NCBI GenBank assembly: GCA_944388995.1
Contig: CALXKN010000008.1
Location: forward strand, 17,160-81,159
DNA: 64,000 nucleotides
Source: an uncultured Spirochaetota bacterium
GTDB taxonomy: Bacteria > Spirochaetota > Spirochaetia > JAFGXN01
Reading direction: 5' to 3'
The translations under genes and the position numbers were made by a program. The first letter of the stretch is position 1. Each line of letters starts with the position of its first letter. This document shows positions 55,225-64,000 of the stretch, one piece after another. The notes beneath the pieces were generated by a model that was given only the letters and a program-made list of their open reading frames with translations, was not told the origin of the DNA and did not search any database.

Positions 55225-55253
55225 ATAGTAAAAGAAAGCCGCCGTCCTGTCAA
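55225..55253 (-). promoter_or_regulatory. sigma70-type promoter abutting the start codon of the SBP gene (leaderless geometry)
   Basis: On the minus strand the sequence is TTGACA, 17 nt, TACTAT, GGCGGC, then ATG (55218). No Shine-Dalgarno is present. Confidence 0.5.
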
Positions 55254-55254
55254 C

Positions 55255-55421
55255 CTTTTCGTTTTTTGGGCGCGCGCCCCTGCGGGGCGCCGGGCTTTCC
55301 GCTGCAATTCGCAGCCTCCCTGCGCCTTCACCGCGGCAAAGCTGCCGCTTTGCCCTGCGCCTTCTCTCCGTCGGCAGCTCATTTCCGCTTCAATCCCTCG
55401 CGCCTTCGGCAAGGTGCTGCG
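55255..55421. repeat. GC-rich structured repeat, copy A (167 bp)
   Basis: Identical to 56426..56591 apart from one extra T. It contains the hairpins GCGCCCC-TGC-GGGGCGC, GCTGC-AATTC-GCAGC and GCGGCA-AAGC-TGCCGC, plus internal sub-repeats (TTTCCGCTnCAAT, CCTGCGCCTTC). Confidence 0.9.
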
Positions 55422-55631
55422 GAAATCGGCATTTTATTGTTTTAGTGTAAAAATGGGAACTTCCGAAAACAGTCAACCGTTTTTCGGAAAAATAACTGCC
55501 CTAAACGTATTTTTGTGTTATAATAACTCCAATAAAAATTTCGTATGGCAAACACAGCAAAAGCAAAACCCGAAAAAAACGCCGATTAAAACCGGAGCGG
55601 AAGATTCGGGAGAAACTTGGAGCGATCGGGT

Positions 55632-55922
55632 ATGAGCTGTAATCTTCCTGAAAGCGTGGTTTTCGATATTGAACGATTCGCAAAGAAAAACAAGATTAAA
55701 AAGGTCGTTCTGTTTGGCTCCCGCGCGAGGGGCAATCATTCGGAACGAAGCGACATTGATTTGGCGGTCAGCGGTGGAAACGCGGCGGATTTTTATTACG
55801 ACGTCAATGAAGAAGCGCGGACTCTTTTAATTTTTGATGTGGTCAATCTGGACGGACCGGTCAGCGGCGAACTGCGCGCCGAAATAGAAAAGGACGGAGT
55901 TTTACTCTATGAAGAAATTTGA
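55632..55922 (+). CDS. minimal nucleotidyltransferase (MNT), antitoxin partner of HEPN (HI0073-like)
   Basis: LFGSRARGNHSERSDIDLAV carries the GSxxRG...DxD NTase motif. The ATG at 55632 is used, whereas the track uses an upstream TTG. Confidence 0.85.
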   Translation: MSCNLPESVVFDIERFAKKNKIKKVVLFGSRARGNHSERSDIDLAVSGGNAADFYYDVNEEARTLLIFDVVNLDGPVSGELRAEIEKDGVLLYEEI

Positions 55923-56304
55923 CAATTTTTGCAAAGCGCTTTCGAATTTGCGGGAAGGATTGCAGCTTGAAGAACCGTATTCTGTCGTCGAACGGACGGG
56001 CATCATCGGGCTGTTTGAAATTTGCTTTGAGCAGGCATGGAAGCTGATGAAAGCGGTTTTGGAAGAGCACGGCAGGACAATCGACCGCGTCGGTTCCCCG
56101 AAAGTTGTCATTCAGCTTGCATATCAGAGCGGGATGATTGACGACAGCGAAAAATGGCTTTCCCTGCTCAGAGATCGAAATATCCTTGCTCACACCTACA
56201 GCGACGAAGATTCGCTTGCCGTGATTCGAACGTTAAAGACGGACTACGAGCCCTTGTTCGCCACCCTCAAAGAAGAGATTGAAACGCGCCGGCTTTCGGC
56301 GTAA
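55909..56304 (+). CDS. HEPN-domain toxin / nucleotidyltransferase substrate-binding protein (HI0074-like)
   Basis: 131 aa. It overlaps the MNT gene by 14 nt and carries the RNILAH Rx4H HEPN motif. Confidence 0.85.
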   Translation: MKKFDNFCKALSNLREGLQLEEPYSVVERTGIIGLFEICFEQAWKLMKAVLEEHGRTIDRVGSPKVVIQLAYQSGMIDDSEKWLSLLRDRNILAHTYSDEDSLAVIRTLKTDYEPLFATLKEEIETRRLSA

Positions 56305-56425
56305 AGCGGAGGCGCGAAACAACTGAGTCCGGTATGAAAGTAGAAGAAATGGGAGCGAAAACTCTTTCAATCGCCACTGATTCTGCCAGCATCTTTACAT
56401 TTGGCTCCGCCCCCCCTCGCTGAAT

Positions 56426-56591
56426 CTTTTCGTTTTTTGGGCGCGCGCCCCTGCGGGGCGCCGGGCTTTCCGCTGCAATTCGCAGCCTCCCGCGCCTTCA
56501 CCGCGGCAAAGCTGCCGCTTTGCCCTGCGCCTTCTCTCCGTCGGCAGCTCATTTCCGCTTCAATCCCTCGCGCCTTCGGCAAGGTGCTGCG
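56426..56591. repeat. GC-rich structured repeat, copy B (166 bp)
   Basis: A direct repeat of 55255..55421 in the same orientation, on the other side of the MNT/HEPN pair. Confidence 0.9.
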
Positions 56592-56655
56592 AAAGAGGCG
56601 TCTGAAAACTATAAATATGAGAACAATCTCATTTAAACCTCATCCATTTTTATCT

Positions 56656-59541
56656 TCAGCAGAAATGCGCCATATCGCGCGGATAATACTTGCAGTCGTG
56701 CAGTTCCGTGTCGTCAAGCCCCAGCGCCTTTACCAGGGCAGCAGACGCTATGCACCAGTACCCGCGGTACTGGTTCTTTTTCAAGTCAAATTTTGTTATA
56801 AGCCCATCAGTCTTCGTGTGAATCCACTGTCTTTTAAGATACCGTTTTAACCGCTCAACAGCCGCCGCTTTATTCTCTTTTGAAAGCAGTACCACCTCAT
56901 ATACCGCATTGGAATATTTCGGACAGCAGAGCTTTTCCGTGCGTATCTGCCAGGATGAGTCCAGCGTCTGCATAAGGAAATCCAGATAAAAATCCCGCTG
57001 TTCCGATTTTTGTAACAATTTTCGATAGTCATCCAGAAATTCAGTCCTGTTAAAAAGCATAATCAAGTACAGAACAGTTTCCATATCTTCATAATTATCA
57101 TTGCCGTCCTGTGCGTCTATCAAATGACGCAAAATCAGGTCTACTTCGGGAAGCAGCTCATGCATATCTAGCCCTAAGGAATATCCTGTATAAAATTTGT
57201 AAAATGCATAAGTATATATTTGATATTTAAACGCTCTTATGTCCGATTCTGCCTGATGTTCATCAGTCTCAATATTATGATGATGATACGTTTGCAGTAT
57301 TTCTTTCAGCTTTTGGGAATCTTTCTTGAATCTTTCGTCAAAATATTCCTGGGGTTTGACTTTATCCCTCATCATTCTTACCCGGGGCGGAAGTTTTTCC
57401 CGCTCCTCCTCCGTAAGAAATTGCGACAGTTCAACTAAAAAGGGCTCTATAAACTCCGACATGAGTTTCGCTTTATTCCCGGCTGAGTGATCATAAGGTA
57501 TTTCAATTGCCGATGTCCGCCGTTTCTCATCCTTCCACAAGCGTCCTATTTTAATAAATGAACCGCCTTTCTCAAATATGTACAACGATATAATCAGTGT
57601 GCAGTCTTCATACTCACATTCTATATAATCTTGCTCCCCCAAGCAGTAATCTCTGTAGGTAAGATTCCTCAAAGTGGTTATTATCCAGGGTATCCACTCT
57701 TTTTTGATGACAACACTATCCCATGACTGCCATGACCCGGTACCGAAACGGCTGCCGGTTCTGGTGTTGATTCGTAGTTCGCCTTTGGGACTCCAGGGCG
57801 TGGGAAGTTTTTTCCGTTCTTCTTCAGGAAGAAATTGTGACAAGGCCACTAAGAAGGGTTCTATAAATTCCGACATGATTTTCAAGTCGTTGTCCGATTC
57901 TTCAAAATTAAATTCGAAACGGGTATAACGCCACTTTGATGTCAGGGTATAACTCTGCTCATTTTTTGCATGCCAAGGAAAATAAGGTATTTCAAGTGCC
58001 GGCGATATCTTCTTTTCATCCTTCCACATGGGAAATATTTTTATATAGGAATACCCATCCCCTATAGGACAGATACTTAATGTTAATTGGCACGTTCCCC
58101 ATTTATTTATGATGCTTTCAACTCCTGTTTGATAATTATCAACACTAAGATTTCTCAATGTGCTTATTATCCAGGGTATCCGGTTTTTTTGTATAACAAT
58201 ACTTTTCTGCTGCCCGCCGCCGAATGTACCGGTTCTTTTTCCGTTAATCCGTAATTCATCGTTATCTAATTCCTCGAAGCTGTATTCAAAATCGGCATTC
58301 AGAGTTTTTTTGCTTTGATATTTTGTTATCTTCTCTATTTTGGCTACTATCGATTCGTCGTCCGACTTATCGGTTTCGCCTGCATACCAATCTTTGCCTT
58401 CGAGCCATACCCCGAACCAGAAAGGAAGATCCCCCCAAGGTCTTTGACAGAGTTCTTTCTTTTCGTTGACACTCCAGGGGGGCGACAGTTTACCCCTTTC
58501 TTCTTCCGTGAGAAACTGCGACAATGCAACCAGAAACGGCTCTATAAATTCCGACATTAATTTTGTTTCTTTCCGGGATACATAGGGTATTTCAATATTC
58601 CATGAACTCTTATTTTCATTTTTCCAGACAGGATAAATTTTGATATAGGAATAATCAAAGGGTACTACATTTATAATAAAACTTAAATTACAGTAACCGT
58701 ATTCATATACGAGAGTTTGCGGGGTGTTATAATCGTCGATAGTGGCATTTCTTAGTGTGGTAATGATCAAAGGTATCCACGCTTTTTTTATGATAATACT
58801 TTCCCATTGTCCCCTGCCGAATGAATCTGTTCGCTTTGCATTGATTTCCAACTCGTCATCATTTAATTCTTCATTGTCAGCTTTTTCCTCAAAATAAAAT
58901 TCGAAATGAACATTCCCGCCCTTACTGATCAGGTATTCTTTTTCTGCCAGTCCGTATTGTGTTATACCGGTCATTGCTTTGAAAAAATTGAGGGAACCGC
59001 TTTCCTTATCGGCAAAAATGATGTTCTGTTTTTTGTTTTCCCTCCAGGGAGGCGGAAGTTGTGTTCTTTCTTCTTCGGTAAGGAATTGTGCCAATTCAAC
59101 CAAAACAGGTTCGATAAATTCCGCCATTAACCTGCTTTTATCCCAGGGTAGATATGGTATTTCAATAAACGGTGTCGTTTTTTCCTTCGGTTCCTTCCAT
59201 ATGGGCATTATTTGAAGGGTCGCATAATCTTTGGCAGATGGTAAAAACTCCAGATTGACTTGACATTCTTCATATTCGTGAACGATATGTCTGTTCCAAA
59301 TCCCTTCCGGAAAGTTGATGTCGTAATCCTCAAAAGGAAGGGTTCTCAGTGTGGTGATAATCCGGGAAATCCACGCTTTTTTTATGACGATACAGTAATA
59401 CAAAGGCATACGTTCCGCTTCATCCAACAATGGAAAGGTTATTTTTTCGAAAATCCGTATTTCGTCGTTGTCCGATTCCTCAAAATGAAATTCAAAGGTA
59501 TCGGATATTTCGGCATCTCCCCTTCTGCCTGTAATGAACAT
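56656..59541 (-). CDS. 961-aa fusion protein: four tandem copies of an unrecognised ~150-190 aa module plus a C-terminal PoNi-like (DUF1910/DUF1911) immunity domain
   Basis: Repeats lie at about aa 15-166, 212-356, 417-523 (+541-583) and 588-719. They share FEFxFEExDNDELRIN, IIKKAWIPxIITTLRN, YIKIxPxWKDEKK, IEIPY and KLMSEFIEPFLVxLSQFLTEEERxKLPPPW. Residues 723-961 begin MRDKVKPQEYF and end YRGYWCIASAALVKALGLDDTELHDCKYYPRDMAHFC. Confidence 0.65.
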   Translation of the reverse strand: MFITGRRGDAEISDTFEFHFEESDNDEIRIFEKITFPLLDEAERMPLYYCIVIKKAWISRIITTLRTLPFEDYDINFPEGIWNRHIVHEYEECQVNLEFLPSAKDYATLQIMPIWKEPKEKTTPFIEIPYLPWDKSRLMAEFIEPVLVELAQFLTEEERTQLPPPWRENKKQNIIFADKESGSLNFFKAMTGITQYGLAEKEYLISKGGNVHFEFYFEEKADNEELNDDELEINAKRTDSFGRGQWESIIIKKAWIPLIITTLRNATIDDYNTPQTLVYEYGYCNLSFIINVVPFDYSYIKIYPVWKNENKSSWNIEIPYVSRKETKLMSEFIEPFLVALSQFLTEEERGKLSPPWSVNEKKELCQRPWGDLPFWFGVWLEGKDWYAGETDKSDDESIVAKIEKITKYQSKKTLNADFEYSFEELDNDELRINGKRTGTFGGGQQKSIVIQKNRIPWIISTLRNLSVDNYQTGVESIINKWGTCQLTLSICPIGDGYSYIKIFPMWKDEKKISPALEIPYFPWHAKNEQSYTLTSKWRYTRFEFNFEESDNDLKIMSEFIEPFLVALSQFLPEEERKKLPTPWSPKGELRINTRTGSRFGTGSWQSWDSVVIKKEWIPWIITTLRNLTYRDYCLGEQDYIECEYEDCTLIISLYIFEKGGSFIKIGRLWKDEKRRTSAIEIPYDHSAGNKAKLMSEFIEPFLVELSQFLTEEEREKLPPRVRMMRDKVKPQEYFDERFKKDSQKLKEILQTYHHHNIETDEHQAESDIRAFKYQIYTYAFYKFYTGYSLGLDMHELLPEVDLILRHLIDAQDGNDNYEDMETVLYLIMLFNRTEFLDDYRKLLQKSEQRDFYLDFLMQTLDSSWQIRTEKLCCPKYSNAVYEVVLLSKENKAAAVERLKRYLKRQWIHTKTDGLITKFDLKKNQYRGYWCIASAALVKALGLDDTELHDCKYYPRDMAHFC

Positions 59542-59780
59542 TGCATCTACCAGTTTAAGAAAAGCTTTTGTATCAGCGGATTGGGCAGATTCTTCATGTT
59601 GATCGTCTTCTTTATTATATTTTATTCCGACTCCTAAGGAACGCAGCCGTCATATCGAAGGGGTGCAACGGTATGACGGCCAACACTCCGCTTTCACGCG
59701 GTGGTCTTATGCTGTTCATGTCGATACCGGACCGCTTCCGACACAACCGAATGAAGTTTTCCGATTTTCCGAATCAATTT

Positions 59781-60486
59781 CTAACAGAAATGGGTCATAT
59801 CGTAGGGATAGTATTTACAGTCTTTCAGTTCCGTATCGTCAAGTTTGAGGGCTTTTACCAAAGCGGCGGCGGCGATGCACCAATACCCCCGGTACCACCC
59901 TATTTTCAGATCCCGGTTGGTTATAACACCTTCGGTTAATGACATAAACCACTGCCTTTTAAGATACCTCTTTAACCGCTGGACGGCTTCCGCCTTGTTT
60001 TCTTTTGACAGCATTACCACCTCGTATACCGAATTGGTCTCTTTGGGGCAACGAAGTTTTTCCGTACTTATCTGCCATGTGGAGTCTACTATCTGTACAA
60101 GATAATCCAGGTAAAAATCCCGCATTTTCGATTTTTGTAATAACTCCTTATATTCATCCAGAAATTCTGTCCGGTTAAAAAGAATGATTAAGTATATAAT
60201 CATTTCCATATCATCATAACCTCTGTCCCTTTCTCTCGTTGTATCAATCAAATTTCTTATGATAAGGTCTACTTCGGGAAGCAGCTCATTCATACCAAGC
60301 CCCAGGGAATAGCCTGCATAAAATTTACAAGCTGCTTCCATATATATGTGATATTTAAACGACCATACATTATATTTTTCCGGATGGCTTATTCTCTTCA
60401 TATTTACTCATCCGTTCAGCAAGATCAGACGCATCCTTATTATATCTTTCCCTAAAATATTCTTCTGTTTTTATGGTGTCTCTCAT
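59781..60486 (-). pseudogene. PoNi-like (DUF1910/DUF1911) immunity gene, apparently split by a 1-nt frameshift; the 206-aa ORF 59781..60401 may still be expressed
   Basis: ORF 59781..60401 aligns with aa 770-961 of the 961-aa protein. The missing N-terminus (MRDTIKTEEYFRERYNKDASDLAERMSKY) is encoded at 60486..60400 in another frame and stops at 60370. Confidence 0.6.
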
Positions 60487-60489
60487 CTG

Positions 60490-60630
60490 TTATTCCTTGT
60501 GTATTTTGTAAATTTTTGGTTTATTCTCGTTATACATAACATTGCCATTTTCATCAAGTTGGTAATATGTTACTTTTCCTCCCTTCGGAACGCCTGCGGC
60601 GTGGCTACAATCCTTTGTGCGAGAAGATTT
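60490..60630 (-). pseudogene. start-less 46-codon remnant, probably the C-terminal tail of a toxin, ending 3 nt before the PoNi-like ATG
   Basis: The open frame KSSRTKDCSHAAGVPKGGKVTYYQLDENGNVMYNENKPKIYKIHKE* has no ATG/GTG/TTG. It begins right after TGA TAA at the edge of the 58-bp repeat. Confidence 0.4.
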
Positions 60631-60642
60631 TTATCAATGGTG

Positions 60643-60700
60643 TCCGTACACACCCATTGATGTTGTCAAAGAACTCCTTCTGTACGGAGATAGGGGGAGG
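60643..60700. repeat. 58-bp junction repeat, copy 1
   Basis: TCCGTACACACCCATTGATGTTGTCAAAGAACTCCTTCTGTACGGAGATAGGGGGAGG is identical to 63943..64000. It contains the 8-bp inverted arms TCCGTACA and TGTACGGA separated by 30 nt. Confidence 0.9.
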
Positions 60701-60701
60701 G

Positions 60702-60929
60702 TTATTCAAAAGTTATTACCATATGCGAACCTGCCGTTTTTTCGGTTACTTTCTGTATAATCTCTTTTTTGTCATCTTCAGTTAATGGCTCGTTTTCTGG
60801 AACAAGCCAATTTTTCATTGAACTTTTATAACAGACAAAACCGCCTACTATCATTTCGCCTGCGATTCTCGCAGTTCTGCCATCGAGTTCTACATCTATG
60901 TATGTGTTTGTTCCGGTTATTTTTGTCAT
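60702..60929 (-). CDS. small hypothetical protein (75 aa) in the immunity-gene array
   Basis: The ORF lies 9 nt downstream of the DUF600 gene. Its first 10 codons are duplicated at 62353..62324. Confidence 0.5.
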   Translation of the reverse strand: MTKITGTNTYIDVELDGRTARIAGEMIVGGFVCYKSSMKNWLVPENEPLTEDDKKEIIQKVTEKTAGSHMVITFE

Positions 60930-61036
60930 ATATTAATCCTATGCATTATCCCATTCGTCTTGAAGAGCCTGATCCCATTCAAAGGTCATATCAAAGTGAC
61001 CGTTCTTTTCAAGGGTGTAAATAGCTTTGTTCCATT
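60899..61036. repeat. 138-bp segmental duplication, copy 1
   Basis: Matches 62323..62460. The first 64 bp are identical and the rest is roughly 85 percent identical by eye. It spans the 3' end of a DUF600 gene, the spacer and the 5' end of the 75-aa gene. Confidence 0.85.
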
Positions 61037-61271
61037 GTGCAAAATGTAACTCTTTTGCACTATTATGAAATTTTATTAAATCAATTTTTGTTTCTCGATT
61101 AAGTGCTAAGTTTAAAGCATTTTTCCATTCTCCATTAATCTGATATTTTGCATTCGTACCAATATATTTATCACTACATTCAATATTCAGTTCAATTTTA
61201 TCCCAAGAGGAATCAATACTATCATTCAATTGCGAACCAATATTTTTATATATATCTTCAATATTTTTCAT
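60939..61271 (-). CDS. DUF600 / YezG / EsaG-type immunity protein
   Basis: 110 aa, starting 11 nt after the nuclease-domain stop with an AGGAG RBS. The overall pattern (acidic, WDKIELNIE...W..A.Y.L...G.F...F) fits DUF600 antitoxins of EsaD/YeeF nucleases. It is a paralog of 62363..62686. Confidence 0.7.
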   Translation of the reverse strand: MKNIEDIYKNIGSQLNDSIDSSWDKIELNIECSDKYIGTNAKYQINGEWKNALNLALNRETKIDLIKFHNSAKELHFAQWNKAIYTLEKNGHFDMTFEWDQALQDEWDNA

Positions 61272-61282
61272 AAATACTCCTA

Positions 61283-61648
61283 TTAATTTAAGAAGAACAA
61301 ATTTTCTGTTTTTTCTATTTTTCCATCCGATGTTTTTATAATGTATGTTACATCAAAATCTGTCGGTCTTAGATTATCAGCATAGTTTATTTTTATATCA
61401 ACTTCAACCTTTTTTCCCTCTGAAAGTGCATCGTTCCATTTTTTTTCCATGGTTTTCCATTCACCATTATTTAGTGTGGCGGTTTGTGGAACATAATTTA
61501 TTTGTTCTCCAGGACCATTGAAAATTCTTGCAATAATATGTCCGCCCTGGTCATCACCTTTAATACCATCTTTTATATCAACTGATTTTCCTTGTTGATA
61601 AACATTTCTGTCTTTTGTTTCAAGTTTTAATTCTCCGCTTACTTTGTT
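61283..61648 (-). pseudogene. orphan, start-less C-terminal nuclease toxin domain (EsaD/YeeF-type, Endonuclease_NS_2-like)
   Basis: Manual translation gives NKVSGELKLETKDRNVYQQGKSVDIKDGIKGDDQGGHIIARIFNGPGEQINYVPQTATLNNGEWKTMEKKWNDALSEGKKVEVDIKINYADNLRPTDFDVTYIIKTSDGKIEKTENLFFLN*. The frame opens after a TAA at 61649-61651 and has no ATG/GTG/TTG until codon 68, so it is absent from the ORF track. Confidence 0.7.
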
Positions 61649-61731
61649 TTACAACTATTTTCTTTTACTTGCAATTGTTCCAAAACGATTAAGTGCAGCA
61701 ACAATATCTTCATAATCAGCATCTATTTCAT

Positions 61732-62262
61732 CTAACTGTCCCAGATTTCCTTAAATTTTAAACCTTTGATACTGTTTTTCTTAACAATATCTATAAACTC
61801 ATCTGTTACAAAATAATCTCGAATAATTAATTGATTTTGTAGTTTAACTTGAAAAAGAGGTGGATAATTGTTTTCCTTAAAATAATATTGCTCAACACCT
61901 AAAATATCATTCTCAAAATACTTATATTTAGTTTTTTTTCGATCTAAGCAGTCCAAAACAGTTAAATTATTTAATAGTACAAAATCGTCATTAAGCGGAA
62001 CAAATCTTATATTTATTTGAGAAATGTCAGAAAGTACTGCCATAAATTTTTTATTTATGAAGAATCCTCTACAATCATAACATTCACAAATATCCCCTGC
62101 AGGATTATTAGAATCTCTATCGTATTCTAATTGAAAATCAGAAGGAATGCTTATTTCTATACCTTTATTAAACTGACGTAAAATTTTTCTATCAGTTTCT
62201 TCGTTTTTTATATAGCATCCTTTGTAATTATCAATATCTGTTTCTAAAATGTATATTTTCAT
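61732..62262 (-). CDS. hypothetical 176-aa protein, immunity-protein-like by context (family not firmly recognised)
   Basis: An AT-rich ORF within the immunity array. Its size and composition resemble DUF1629/Imm-type proteins, but no diagnostic motif was identified. Confidence 0.45.
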   Translation of the reverse strand: MKIYILETDIDNYKGCYIKNEETDRKILRQFNKGIEISIPSDFQLEYDRDSNNPAGDICECYDCRGFFINKKFMAVLSDISQINIRFVPLNDDFVLLNNLTVLDCLDRKKTKYKYFENDILGVEQYYFKENNYPPLFQVKLQNQLIIRDYFVTDEFIDIVKKNSIKGLKFKEIWDS

Positions 62263-62299
62263 ATATCCCCCCCCTAATTGTGAATTTTTAAGAAACCAC

Positions 62300-62353
62300 T
62301 CAATAATTCCTTTCGGATTGTTTGTATGTGTTTGTTCCGGTTATTTTTGTCAT
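62300..62353 (-). pseudogene. 17-codon relic of the 75-aa gene
   Basis: MTKITGTNTYKQSERNY*. The first 10 codons are identical to 60929..60900, after which the sequence diverges and stops. Confidence 0.6.
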
Positions 62354-62460
62354 ATATTAATCCTATGCATTATCCCATTCGTCTTGGAGAGTTTGATCCC
62401 ATTCAAATGTCATATCAAAATGACCATTCCTTTCAAGAGAGTAAACAGCTTTGTTCCATT
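62323..62460. repeat. 138-bp segmental duplication, copy 2
   Basis: See 60899..61036. Confidence 0.85.
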
Positions 62461-62686
62461 TATGCTCAGGCGACATAGATTCTTGAAGTTCAAAAACGCT
62501 ATCCATTAAAGTATTTACAGTTAATAAAGGAAACTTTAATTCTTTTTTTTCAAACGATGATAAAGTATATTCTGCCTGAAATGAACACATTTTATTTAGA
62601 CTTGATTCTATTTTTACAGTCACTTTTTCCCATTTACCGGAAATATTATCTTGAACCGCCTTGCCTAATTCTTTATATAAATCCAT
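62363..62686 (-). CDS. DUF600 / YezG / EsaG-type immunity protein, second paralog
   Basis: 107 aa. The C-terminal KWNKAVYSLERNGHFDMTFEWDQTLQDEWDNA is nearly identical to the C-terminus of 60939..61271. Confidence 0.7.
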   Translation of the reverse strand: MDLYKELGKAVQDNISGKWEKVTVKIESSLNKMCSFQAEYTLSSFEKKELKFPLLTVNTLMDSVFELQESMSPEHKWNKAVYSLERNGHFDMTFEWDQTLQDEWDNA

Positions 62687-62732
62687 AGCATCTCCATTAA
62701 TTGTTGAATATTTTTTTGAATAGTTGGCTCAT

Positions 62733-63842
62733 TTATTTCTCTTTATTTAAAATAAACAGATACTCAGAGACGTGTATATTACGGTTATTCAAATTTCTGC
62801 TTCCCCGGAATGTATTATAAGTCATTTCAACGGTTTTCAGTTTTCCGTAGTGTTCCAGCATTGTTTTCATTTGCTCAAAAGTAATAAATCCTTCAGAATT
62901 ATAAGAGATAATGACAAACTTTGAATCAATTTTATCTATGATTTTTTCCATGGATTTTAAGGCTGAATAAGGTTTGTTGAATTCCGAGCGGTTCCAATCC
63001 TGAGTTATCCCTGAAACTTTACTGATTTCAGCATCCAGCCTGTTCTTTATGATAAGATTCAGCATAAAATAATTTGAACCATAGGGATGCTGGTTATACG
63101 GGGGATCCAGATAAGTAATATCTATTTTTTTTAATTCCCCGGCAAGTTCCACAGCATCTTTTTTATAGATTTTAACCTTTGAATTGAAATTGCTTAAAAC
63201 CGGCTCTTTCAGTTCTATTTTTCCAAAAATGCGGGTTAAAGCGTTTTTCCCGGCAGCGCCGAAACATCCGATTCCGGTATTTTTGTCCTTGTAAAACCCT
63301 TTGAAAACCCCGCTTGTATTGACATGAACCGAAGCCTCCGTTACGAGCGGCGCTAAAAAAAATTTTTTCATGTCTTCTTCCTGCACCACTTTATCAATCA
63401 GACTGCGGTAAGTGTCGATTAACAGAGCGTTCTCATGGGTATAAAAAACCCTTTCTCCTCTTTGAATATTTCCGTCATCCTGAGGGGCATAATTTTTTGT
63501 GATAATTCTCGGTTCTTTTTTGCTGCGGCACATTTCTTCTATTATTGATTTATATTCCCGCCATTTTTCATGCGGAAAATCTTTTTTGTCAGTCAGATAG
63601 CATTCATTGATGAGGCGGGAATATTCTTCCAGATCATTGGCAATTAAAACACTGCTGTATTTTTTCAGCATCCGGGCAACAATTCCCGAACCGGAGAAAA
63701 TATCCGCACAAACAAGTTTTTCTTTTCCCAATAAACCGGCAATTTTTTTGACTTCTTCTTCTATATTCCTGATAAGCTGCCGTTTGTTCCTGATATAAGT
63801 AATGATCTGTGCAGTAAGATATTCTTTATTTTCTTCTTTCAT
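62733..63842 (-). CDS. N6-adenine DNA methyltransferase (SAM motif then DPPY), no cognate endonuclease visible
   Basis: DIFSGSGIVARML (FxGxG, motif I) near aa 48 and YLDPPYNQHPYGSNY (motif IV) near aa 244. Length is 369 aa. Confidence 0.8.
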   Translation of the reverse strand: MKEENKEYLTAQIITYIRNKRQLIRNIEEEVKKIAGLLGKEKLVCADIFSGSGIVARMLKKYSSVLIANDLEEYSRLINECYLTDKKDFPHEKWREYKSIIEEMCRSKKEPRIITKNYAPQDDGNIQRGERVFYTHENALLIDTYRSLIDKVVQEEDMKKFFLAPLVTEASVHVNTSGVFKGFYKDKNTGIGCFGAAGKNALTRIFGKIELKEPVLSNFNSKVKIYKKDAVELAGELKKIDITYLDPPYNQHPYGSNYFMLNLIIKNRLDAEISKVSGITQDWNRSEFNKPYSALKSMEKIIDKIDSKFVIISYNSEGFITFEQMKTMLEHYGKLKTVEMTYNTFRGSRNLNNRNIHVSEYLFILNKEK

Positions 63843-63877
63843 GGCTGTAAAGATTTATATTGTTCCAAATTTCCGGT

Positions 63878-64000
63878 TTATTCTATGCTTTTTGACAGAC
63901 CTTTATACTCAGTATCCCTCTCCGCAAAAATCAACCCGGATTTCCGTACACACCCATTGATGTTGTCAAAGAACTCCTTCTGTACGGAGATAGGGGGAGG
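63878..64000 (-). CDS. 3' end of a gene whose body lies beyond the window edge; its last 40 codons include the 58-bp repeat
   Basis: Only one minus-strand frame is open from 64000: PPPISVQKEFFDNINGCVRKSGLIFAERDTEYKGLSKSIE*. It stops 35 nt before the methyltransferase ATG. Confidence 0.45.
   Translation of the reverse strand, partial: PPPISVQKEFFDNINGCVRKSGLIFAERDTEYKGLSKSIE
63943..64000. repeat. 58-bp junction repeat, copy 2 (may extend past the window)
   Basis: Identical to 60643..60700. Confidence 0.9.

Follow-up and report, generated by a model that had tools for sequence, protein, structure and literature searches.

Polyimmunity proteins, which carry up to 10 immunity domains on one polypeptide, were defined in 2012 (Zhang, Aravind et al., PMC3482391), and the part of that survey that deals with them already notes that Treponema has many immunity genes and few toxins. 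The immunity protein PoNi binds and neutralises the toxin PoNe, a PD-(D/E)xK DNase; about 90% of PoNe genes have a PoNi gene downstream, and orphan PoNi genes are to be expected (Jana et al. 2019, PMC6688995). A further point of reference is structural: in 2022, a PurA/Whirly-like fold with a three-stranded first sheet was reported for sPC4L-Imm1/2 and two CdiI proteins (PMC9424270). Here we analyse a 64,000-nucleotide stretch of DNA (the window) from an uncultured Spirochaetota bacterium (assembly GCA_944388995.1, contig CALXKN010000008.1, positions 17,160 to 81,159), and in it one gene (56656..59541, minus strand, called from an ATG start) whose 961-aa product consists of four PUR/PC4-like units followed by a PoNi domain. 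We consider it probable that this gene encodes a cytoplasmic polyimmunity protein in which four units of an unnamed immunity family are joined to PoNi. All coordinates are those of the window unless a locus (L) number precedes them, and all parts of the gene lie on the minus strand.

Four tandem units fused to a PoNi domain

Segment-wise Smith-Waterman local alignment of the 961-aa protein shows four units (R1–R4) that are 40–53% identical in pairs, with z = 28–55 relative to shuffled sequences, and a C-terminal stretch of 239 aa that is unlike any of them (z about 0). The repeats are demonstrated in this way since BLAST of the protein against itself returned the identity match alone. A sequence-only reading of the window had proposed four divergent tandem copies of a unit of 150–190 aa that could not be assigned to any known family. 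The four copies are borne out, each of the motif blocks it listed being present four times at the positions given, and the unit is without a match in Pfam or NCBIfam. The size needs correction: the conserved core is ~150 aa, and the range of 150–190 aa describes core plus linkers. For mapping, a profile hidden Markov model (HMM) of the unit was built from R1 and R2. R1 (aa 13–168; 59038..59505; pI 4.6) is complete and covers profile positions 1–157 with 303 bits, and R2 (aa 210–358; 58468..58914), the unit chosen for modelling, is likewise complete. R3 is present at its expected location as a core (aa 415–531; 57949..58299) that reaches profile positions 2–124 only, its terminal helix not being at the usual place. 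The remainder of R4 (aa 586–722; 57376..57786) extends from the second strand to the terminal helix (aa 586–723 on profile positions 22–155).

The C-terminal ~240 aa score to the DUF1910 and DUF1911 profiles and, as had been supposed, constitute a full PoNi immunity domain joined in frame (aa 723–961; 56659..57375; Pfam PF08928 and PF08929). PoNi_C (PF08929) matches aa 849–957 over profile positions 2–107 of 107 with 64.9 bits (cut-off 25, E 1.4e-17). PoNi_N (PF08928) matches aa 725–831 from the first profile position (1–106 of 117) with a marginal 22.7 bits against a cut-off of 22.4. The preceding aa 1–722 have no Pfam match. Directly upstream of the fusion gene lies a second, stand-alone PoNi gene that begins with MRDTIKTEEYF at 60486, as the sequence-only reading had it, and the fused domain is 64% identical to the intact stand-alone orthologue of this neighbour (L002/L003). 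Our domain thus resembles PoNi / Imm-PA2201 (PMC6688995) in matching both PoNi profiles end to end, and differs in being an orphan that comes after 722 aa made up of further immunity-like domains. No large toxin-like open reading frame (ORF) lies beside the gene in the window or in its relatives L001, L002, L014, L015 and L018, as judged by inspection of the neighbouring ORFs and not by a PoNe profile search.

Free-standing units follow a toxin-like domain

When 1.84 billion representatives were searched exhaustively with HMMER, the unit profile returned 42 proteins, including free-standing units of 150–195 aa. The sequence-only reading had suggested looking for single units as genes of their own next to toxins, and free-standing units do lie downstream of a toxin-like C-terminal domain in L005–L008, L010, L011 and L021–L025. 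In L005–L007, an eCIS_core gene is followed by a gene for an unannotated protein of 801 aa and then by a unit gene whose start overlaps the stop of the 801-aa frame. L008 has the last 365 aa of a homologue of that protein (47% identity, E 9e-110), again with an overlapping unit gene behind them. L010 has an orphan C-terminal cassette of 134 aa with an overlapping unit gene, followed by a second cassette remnant ~14 nt before a second unit gene and then by a third unit gene, and in L011 a toxin remnant also ends ~14 nt before a unit gene. The reverse search, starting from the toxin-like C-terminal domain, gave 17 homologous clusters, none of which is annotated, and in all three look-ups made from it the unit lies directly downstream with overlapping stop and start codons. 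In L021–L023 a protein of 266 aa precedes a unit of 192 aa (E 4.5e-61), in L024 a protein of 234 aa precedes a unit of 175 aa, and in L025 three tandem units come after a remnant. The toxin-like family (L006 2374-4779; L008 1-1098; L010 799-1203; L021 4409-5209; L024 334-1038) is marked by the motifs FAWVTDPY, YDYTGASxLFxGxG, NIERGF and FRFEV, and the unit gene always comes after it. A link to contractile injection systems is provided by eCIS_core genes upstream in both L005–L007 and L021–L023, and by L003, where a stand-alone PoNi gene and then a unit gene adjoin baseplate, sheath and tube genes.

A downstream gene placed against the C-terminal domain, kept with orphan cassettes and accompanied by tandem paralogues is the established signature of toxin-immunity modules in polymorphic toxin systems (PMC3482391). 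Because the free-standing homologues lie directly downstream of the toxin-like domain, mostly with overlapping stop and start codons, the unit is best read as an immunity domain, and the free-standing units as the putative cognate partners of an unnamed toxin C-terminal domain carried by contractile-injection-linked polymorphic toxins. Alternatively, the unit might be no immunity protein but a chaperone or adaptor that stabilises the neighbouring effector or loads it onto a contractile injection system, which would make the Treponema fusion a leftover or an adaptor for several cargoes. We regard this as unlikely. The unit always comes after the partner's C-terminal domain, in most cases with overlapping stop and start codons; it is kept with orphan C-terminal cassettes that have no delivery part and occurs in arrays of tandem paralogues (L010, L025); in Treponema it is joined to a bona fide immunity domain and has Imm74, Imm11-like and YezG-like genes around it; and the window contains neither injection-system genes nor an effector.

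Several observations accompany the partner domain. In the 801-aa form, the middle region is hydrophobic and transmembrane-like, and eCIS_core lies upstream in two lineages. Ntox44 was considered as an identity for the toxin-like domain and was not accepted: one of three C-terminal domains matched at E 0.047 and the other two had no match. Beside the Treponema fusion genes we see no toxin, the neighbours being SH3_3, WG-repeat and housekeeping proteins. Proteins with a C-terminal SH3_3 lie just upstream of the fusion gene in L001 (7656-8576), L002 (1-900), L015 (5754-6689) and L018 (3818-7360), and not in the window. The free-standing unit right after the fusion gene of L018 closely resembles, by eye only, the unit paired with the 266-aa toxin of L021–L023, and these last loci were recovered from the same metagenome series (BRZ samples) as the fusion locus L001.

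Free-standing units (P0024, P0025, P0032, P0038, P0039) end in a Lys/Glu-rich spacer and a conserved tail of the form [IL]x[FY][VL]xEIxPx[DE][YL]F. In the window protein, this tail can be aligned to the linkers between units (aa 181–196 and 369–387), and it resembles both the R4-PoNi junction (aa 719–733) and the PoNi N-terminus (VRMMRDKVKPQEYF). One possibility is that it supplies, in cis or in trans, the additional strand needed to complete the three-stranded sheet. The idea that free-standing units are truncated unit-PoNi fusions was discarded, as the DNA after the L003 unit is a transposase-like remnant and not PoNi, and the tail aligns with the linkers.

Predicted fold of the unit

Fourteen units gave no match to NCBIfam or to Pfam, even at E values up to 10, and this includes PurA (PF04845) and the other models of the PC4 clan (CL0609); the same searches gave no match to any well-characterised non-immunity family, an identity that would have spoken against the sequence-only reading. 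A marginal sequence match to PvuII was not borne out by fold searches. The unit is predicted to be an independently folding domain of PUR/Whirly/PC4-like topology, with the order beta-beta-beta-alpha followed by beta-beta-beta-beta-alpha. The predicted domain therefore has two halves, each made of a beta-sheet plus a helix, and its first sheet is three-stranded, as in the immunity versions of the fold.

The closest relatives by fold are thus sPC4L-Imm1/2 and the CdiI proteins 4NTQ_B and 5FFP_A (PMC9424270; CL0609), with which the units share the predicted two-sheet, two-helix arrangement and the three-stranded first sheet. The free-standing units, in contrast to the orphan Treponema fusions, also share with them the position of the gene directly downstream of a toxin C-terminal domain. 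They differ in lacking a sequence match to the Pfam families of CL0609, the comparison with sPC4L-Imm1/2 being one of fold descriptions. From Pur-alpha, Borrelia Bpur and Whirly/PC4 proteins the units are set apart by an identity of 9–12%, by being acidic rather than basic and by their toxin-immunity context.

A rival reading takes the units to be PUR-like nucleic-acid binders, with a protein that would coat DNA or RNA or tether itself to it, might position PoNi on the chromosome or shield DNA from DNase toxins, or might act as a regulator in the manner of Borrelia Bpur. This appears quite improbable. The units have pI values of 4.6–6.0 and net charges of -1 to -15, so that nucleic-acid binding is not suggested; there is no PurA match; free units are found behind toxin-like domains and with orphan cassettes, which is not the context of a regulator; and toxin-binding proteins built on this fold have already been described (PMC9424270).

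An interleaved junction between R3 and R4

The sequence-only reading had noted that the block order is scrambled between the third and fourth repeats. The scrambled order is real, since the motif positions and the mapping with the R1/R2 profile agree. The elements follow each other as R3 (strand 1 to strand 7), R4 (strand 1), R3 (helix) and R4 (strand 2 to helix), so that the first strand of R4 has been relocated ahead of the helix of R3, and the terminal helix of R3 lies within the beta1-beta2 hairpin of R4. The relocated strand (aa 539–553, FEFNFEESDND; 57883..57927) matches profile positions 3–15 weakly when taken alone (0.9 bits, i-Evalue 0.45), and its assignment rests mainly on FEFNFEE at aa 542; in the model of the R3-R4 region it is a predicted strand at model residues 133–139, with a short extra strand before it. 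The relocated helix (aa 554–585, IMSEFIEPFLVALSQFLPEEERKKLPTPW; 57787..57882) is much clearer, with aa 548–585 on profile positions 123–156 at an i-Evalue of 2.3e-13, and is the most conserved block of the protein, with a column entropy of 0.00 over aa 556–570 among 17 homologues. This arrangement interleaves two adjoining domains and is not the circular permutation of a single one.

The model of aa 410–724 (pLDDT 72.8, pTM 0.55) gives both units the canonical order of strands and helices. The relocated helix is confidently placed (pLDDT blocks of 82–84) and a 17-residue connector is disordered. If this model is right, placing the R3 terminal helix inside the first hairpin of R4 would probably tie the two domains into one interlocked module. 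We know of no description of such a segment-swapped tandem architecture for immunity proteins.

The scramble had been interpreted as a footprint of unequal recombination between repeats, and this interpretation is not supported. The permuted junction is the same in every relative with three, four or five units, the relocated strand is kept in all homologues, and the region is under purifying selection. Moreover, in-register unequal crossing-over alters copy number only and therefore could not give this order. The permutation is an old, fixed segment swap rather than the product of a recent crossover, and its origin would need several illegitimate events, or an insertion followed by loss.

Relatives, selection and the state of the window copy

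A search with aa 1–722 against 5.8 billion proteins returned only 23 clusters, which are defined at 90% identity and come from many samples, one of them having 136 member sequences; the frame is intact in all. The PoNi fusion is present in every cluster that spans the C-terminus, P0006 and P0012 being truncated calls. Relatives in the genome scan are restricted to Candidatus Treponema excrementipullorum, uncultured Treponema sp. and Candidatus Gallitreponema excrementavium, all from chicken gut, and one contig is 100% identical across R2. The number of units before PoNi is three (713–754 aa), four (962–988 aa) or five (1,138 aa, L015). Units are gained or lost on the N-terminal side, and the core of R3, junction, R4 and PoNi is constant. 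The five-unit version lies at L015 6879-10295. In L018 (7463-10228), a three-unit version is split by a frameshift into 115 and 626 aa, and a free-standing unit gene follows directly.

In every region dN/dS is 0.14–0.53, with dS up to 0.7–1.6, which indicates purifying selection. The four helix blocks are 67–83% identical as protein and 67–74% identical at the DNA level, with different codons at about every second identical residue; it is the protein that has been conserved, and not the synonymous sites. This rules out recent gene conversion as the source of the strongly conserved helix block. Because of the codon divergence in the helix blocks and the low dN/dS, the four units are to be regarded as old duplicates that have been retained by selection, rather than the outcome of recent gene conversion or an assembly artefact.

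One segment behaves differently. A hypervariable patch in R4 (aa 631–675; 57517..57651), located in the second beta-sheet, has an entropy of 0.74–1.0 among the homologues, compared to 0.0–0.4 in its flanks, and a dS of 1.0–1.7 as opposed to 0–0.06 in R3 and the junction of the same gene pair. Between the window and L001, for example, R3 and the junction are identical as protein, and the patch is 44% identical with a dS of 1.68. Three variants of the patch occur on near-identical backbones. On these sequence comparisons the patch looks like a recombination mosaic that is exchanged as a segment among alleles, and it is plausible that it determines specificity.

The window copy itself may not be in perfect condition. 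Upstream of the ATG, the frame stays open for exactly 36 stop-free codons (59542..59649) that include no ATG, GTG or TTG. The sequence-only reading had reported this correctly and left the 5' end uncertain, an uncertainty that the orthologues remove. In L002 and L014, which are 99% identical, the protein starts 27 codons further upstream at AGGAGTCGGA-ATG, with a Shine-Dalgarno sequence before it. At 59623-59640 (minus strand), the window has kept the Shine-Dalgarno sequence (AGGAG), but this ATG reads ATA (59623-59625) and an insertion of 3 nt comes after it. No obvious Shine-Dalgarno sequence precedes the ATG that comes next (59541). The window copy thus seems to have lost the canonical start, and would have to initiate at the internal ATG at 59541, or poorly. 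In the five-unit protein of L015, unit 1 is followed by a linker (...ADNRKAFLKFVEAMFVKNKRGEAKMSDAFEFYFEE) that is homologous to the upstream frame plus the first residues of the window ORF (...ADTKAFLKLVDAMFITGRRGDAEISDTFEFHFEE), and on account of this homology we take the upstream open codons to be a relic of an inter-unit linker. The neighbouring stand-alone PoNi gene (59781..60486, minus strand; PoNi_C E 6e-20) is disrupted by a 2-bp deletion: the frames switch after codon 31 (nt 93, near 60393), where the window has GAAGAG--AATAAG and the intact 237-aa orthologue of L002 has GAAGAGGTAATAAG. This neighbour is either a pseudogene or an assembly error. Likewise, the lost start and the frameshift together reflect either a locus that is beginning to decay in this strain or errors of metagenome assembly.

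These defects bring up the possibility that the long ORF is a fused pseudogene in decay, or a chimera created during assembly, of which only an internal PoNi product (start near 57375) is functional. The lost ATG, the 2-bp frameshift in the adjacent PoNi gene, the frameshifted relative in L018 and a scrambled junction that looks like a rearrangement scar all point in this direction. They are outweighed by the full frame in the 23 clusters, including the one with 136 members, by the dN/dS values in all unit regions at appreciable dS, and by a junction that is identical in the three-, four- and five-unit forms and contains the most conserved block of the protein. We therefore consider a pseudogene or chimera very improbable and take the fusion to be a maintained protein family.

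The polyimmunity locus and its surroundings

Upstream of the 961-aa gene, the stretch 59781-62686 holds, all on the minus strand, the stand-alone PoNi gene followed by Imm74 (60702-60929; Pfam E 1.3e-15, above cut-off), a YezG-like gene (60939-61271; 20.8 bits, just below the Pfam cut-off of 21.7), an Imm11-like gene (61732-62262; 19.8 bits, just below the cut-off of 22.1) and a second YezG-like gene (62363-62686; 23.4 bits, above the cut-off of 21.7). The partner-toxin HMM has no match in the window. Co-oriented immunity genes without toxin genes or cassettes are what characterises a polyimmunity locus, and the region is a heterogeneous, toxin-free example. The protein, with four units and PoNi on one polypeptide, conforms to the polyimmunity type as well, the immunity role of the unit being drawn from gene adjacency. 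Compared with the polyimmunity proteins in the portion of the 2012 survey that describes them (PMC3482391), the similarities are the tandem copies of one family combined with an unrelated immunity domain in one polypeptide, and the small co-oriented immunity locus without toxin genes. The differences are that the repeated domain falls outside the families listed there (SUKH, SuFu, Imm-ank, Imm11 and others), that no comparable fusion with PoNi (Imm-PA2201) is listed, and that our protein has an internal segment swap.

The GC content is 33–34% over 60000-64000, where a D12-class adenine methyltransferase (62733-63842) is encoded beside the polyimmunity genes, versus 41–55% elsewhere in the window. 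A horizontally acquired island that runs past the end of the window would fit this pattern. The two YezG-like ORFs are mostly divergent and near-identical in their C-terminal ~30 aa (WNKA[IV]Y[TS]LE[KR]NGHFDMTFEWDQ[AT]LQDEWDNA), which suggests either a recombination junction or a conserved functional tail. In P0054, a truncated unit is joined to a near-identical copy of the Imm11-like protein of the window, and in P0061 a related Imm11-like C-terminus is joined to a unit. These joins point to further fusions, or fragments of them, in polyimmunity loci related to this one, and the unit therefore accompanies other immunity genes elsewhere too. On the other side of the fusion gene, two GC-rich direct repeats of ~173 bp (55252-55424 and 56423-56594, plus strand; 98–99% identical, spacing 1,170 bp, two copies only in the window) bracket an MNT/HepT-type toxin-antitoxin pair consisting of a nucleotidyltransferase (55617-55922) and an NTase_sub_bind/HepT-like protein (55909-56304). 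The bracketed pair could be a small mobile cassette, or the repeats a duplication of an insertion target.

Discussion

A multi-valent immunity protein, as proposed in the sequence-only reading, is the best explanation of the fusion gene, given the adjacency of units and toxin-like domains elsewhere. The arrangement is not novel in kind, polyimmunity proteins having been described since 2012 (PMC3482391, in its treatment of such proteins), and the alternative of a decoy carrying toxin-binding modules has no specific support.

We infer the following mechanism. Each unit would bind one variant of the partner toxin 1:1 and block it. With units that are 40–53% identical to each other and a surface patch that is exchanged among alleles, the array would provide immunity to several variants of the toxin, and protection from PoNe-type DNases would come from PoNi. 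The interlocked R3-R4 module together with PoNi would form the constant core of the family, to which further units would be added, or from which they would be lost, at the N-terminus to give versions with three, four or five units. As the locus has no toxin, the protein would provide pre-emptive orphan immunity against toxins from neighbouring chicken-gut bacteria.

A number of observations weigh against this explanation. The toxin-like C-terminal domain has no sequence match in Pfam, NCBIfam or the PDB, and the partner-toxin HMM finds it neither in the window nor in the Treponema fusion loci. The putative toxicity of the partner, and its neutralisation by the unit, are deduced from gene adjacency. 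With a mutated start codon and a frameshifted PoNi neighbour, the window copy may be poorly expressed or decaying. Finally, as the R3-R4 model has a pTM of just 0.55 and its connector is disordered, the interlocked geometry should be taken as a proposal.

What is new here is a probable immunity family of predicted PUR-like fold for which the databases have no model, together with an unannotated putative partner toxin domain that is linked to contractile injection systems. Also new are the arrays of three to five units ending in PoNi in chicken-gut Treponema, their conserved interleaved junction and their segment-like variable patch. In the fullest version of this interpretation, which we put forward tentatively, the units could be a new immunity family directed against a new contractile-injection toxin domain; the Treponema arrays could be modular broad-spectrum antitoxins that are re-assorted by segment swaps in R4 and by gain and loss of N-terminal units; and their core could be a naturally interlocked double domain with a helix threaded through the hairpin of the next domain.

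The antibacterial effectors of contractile injection systems and their immunity proteins are still poorly catalogued, and our analysis adds a putative toxin-immunity pair that is named in no database. It would also extend the PurA/Whirly-like fold as a recurrent toxin-binding scaffold. With its three to five divergent units, a hypervariable patch that behaves as a segment and a fixed interleaved junction, the array offers a compact and experimentally tractable system for studying how polyvalent immunity evolves and how tandem domains tolerate a rearrangement that is not circular. For chicken-gut Treponema, the data suggest orphan immunity against the toxins of neighbours, with candidate cognate pairs present in the same BRZ series as one of the fusion loci.

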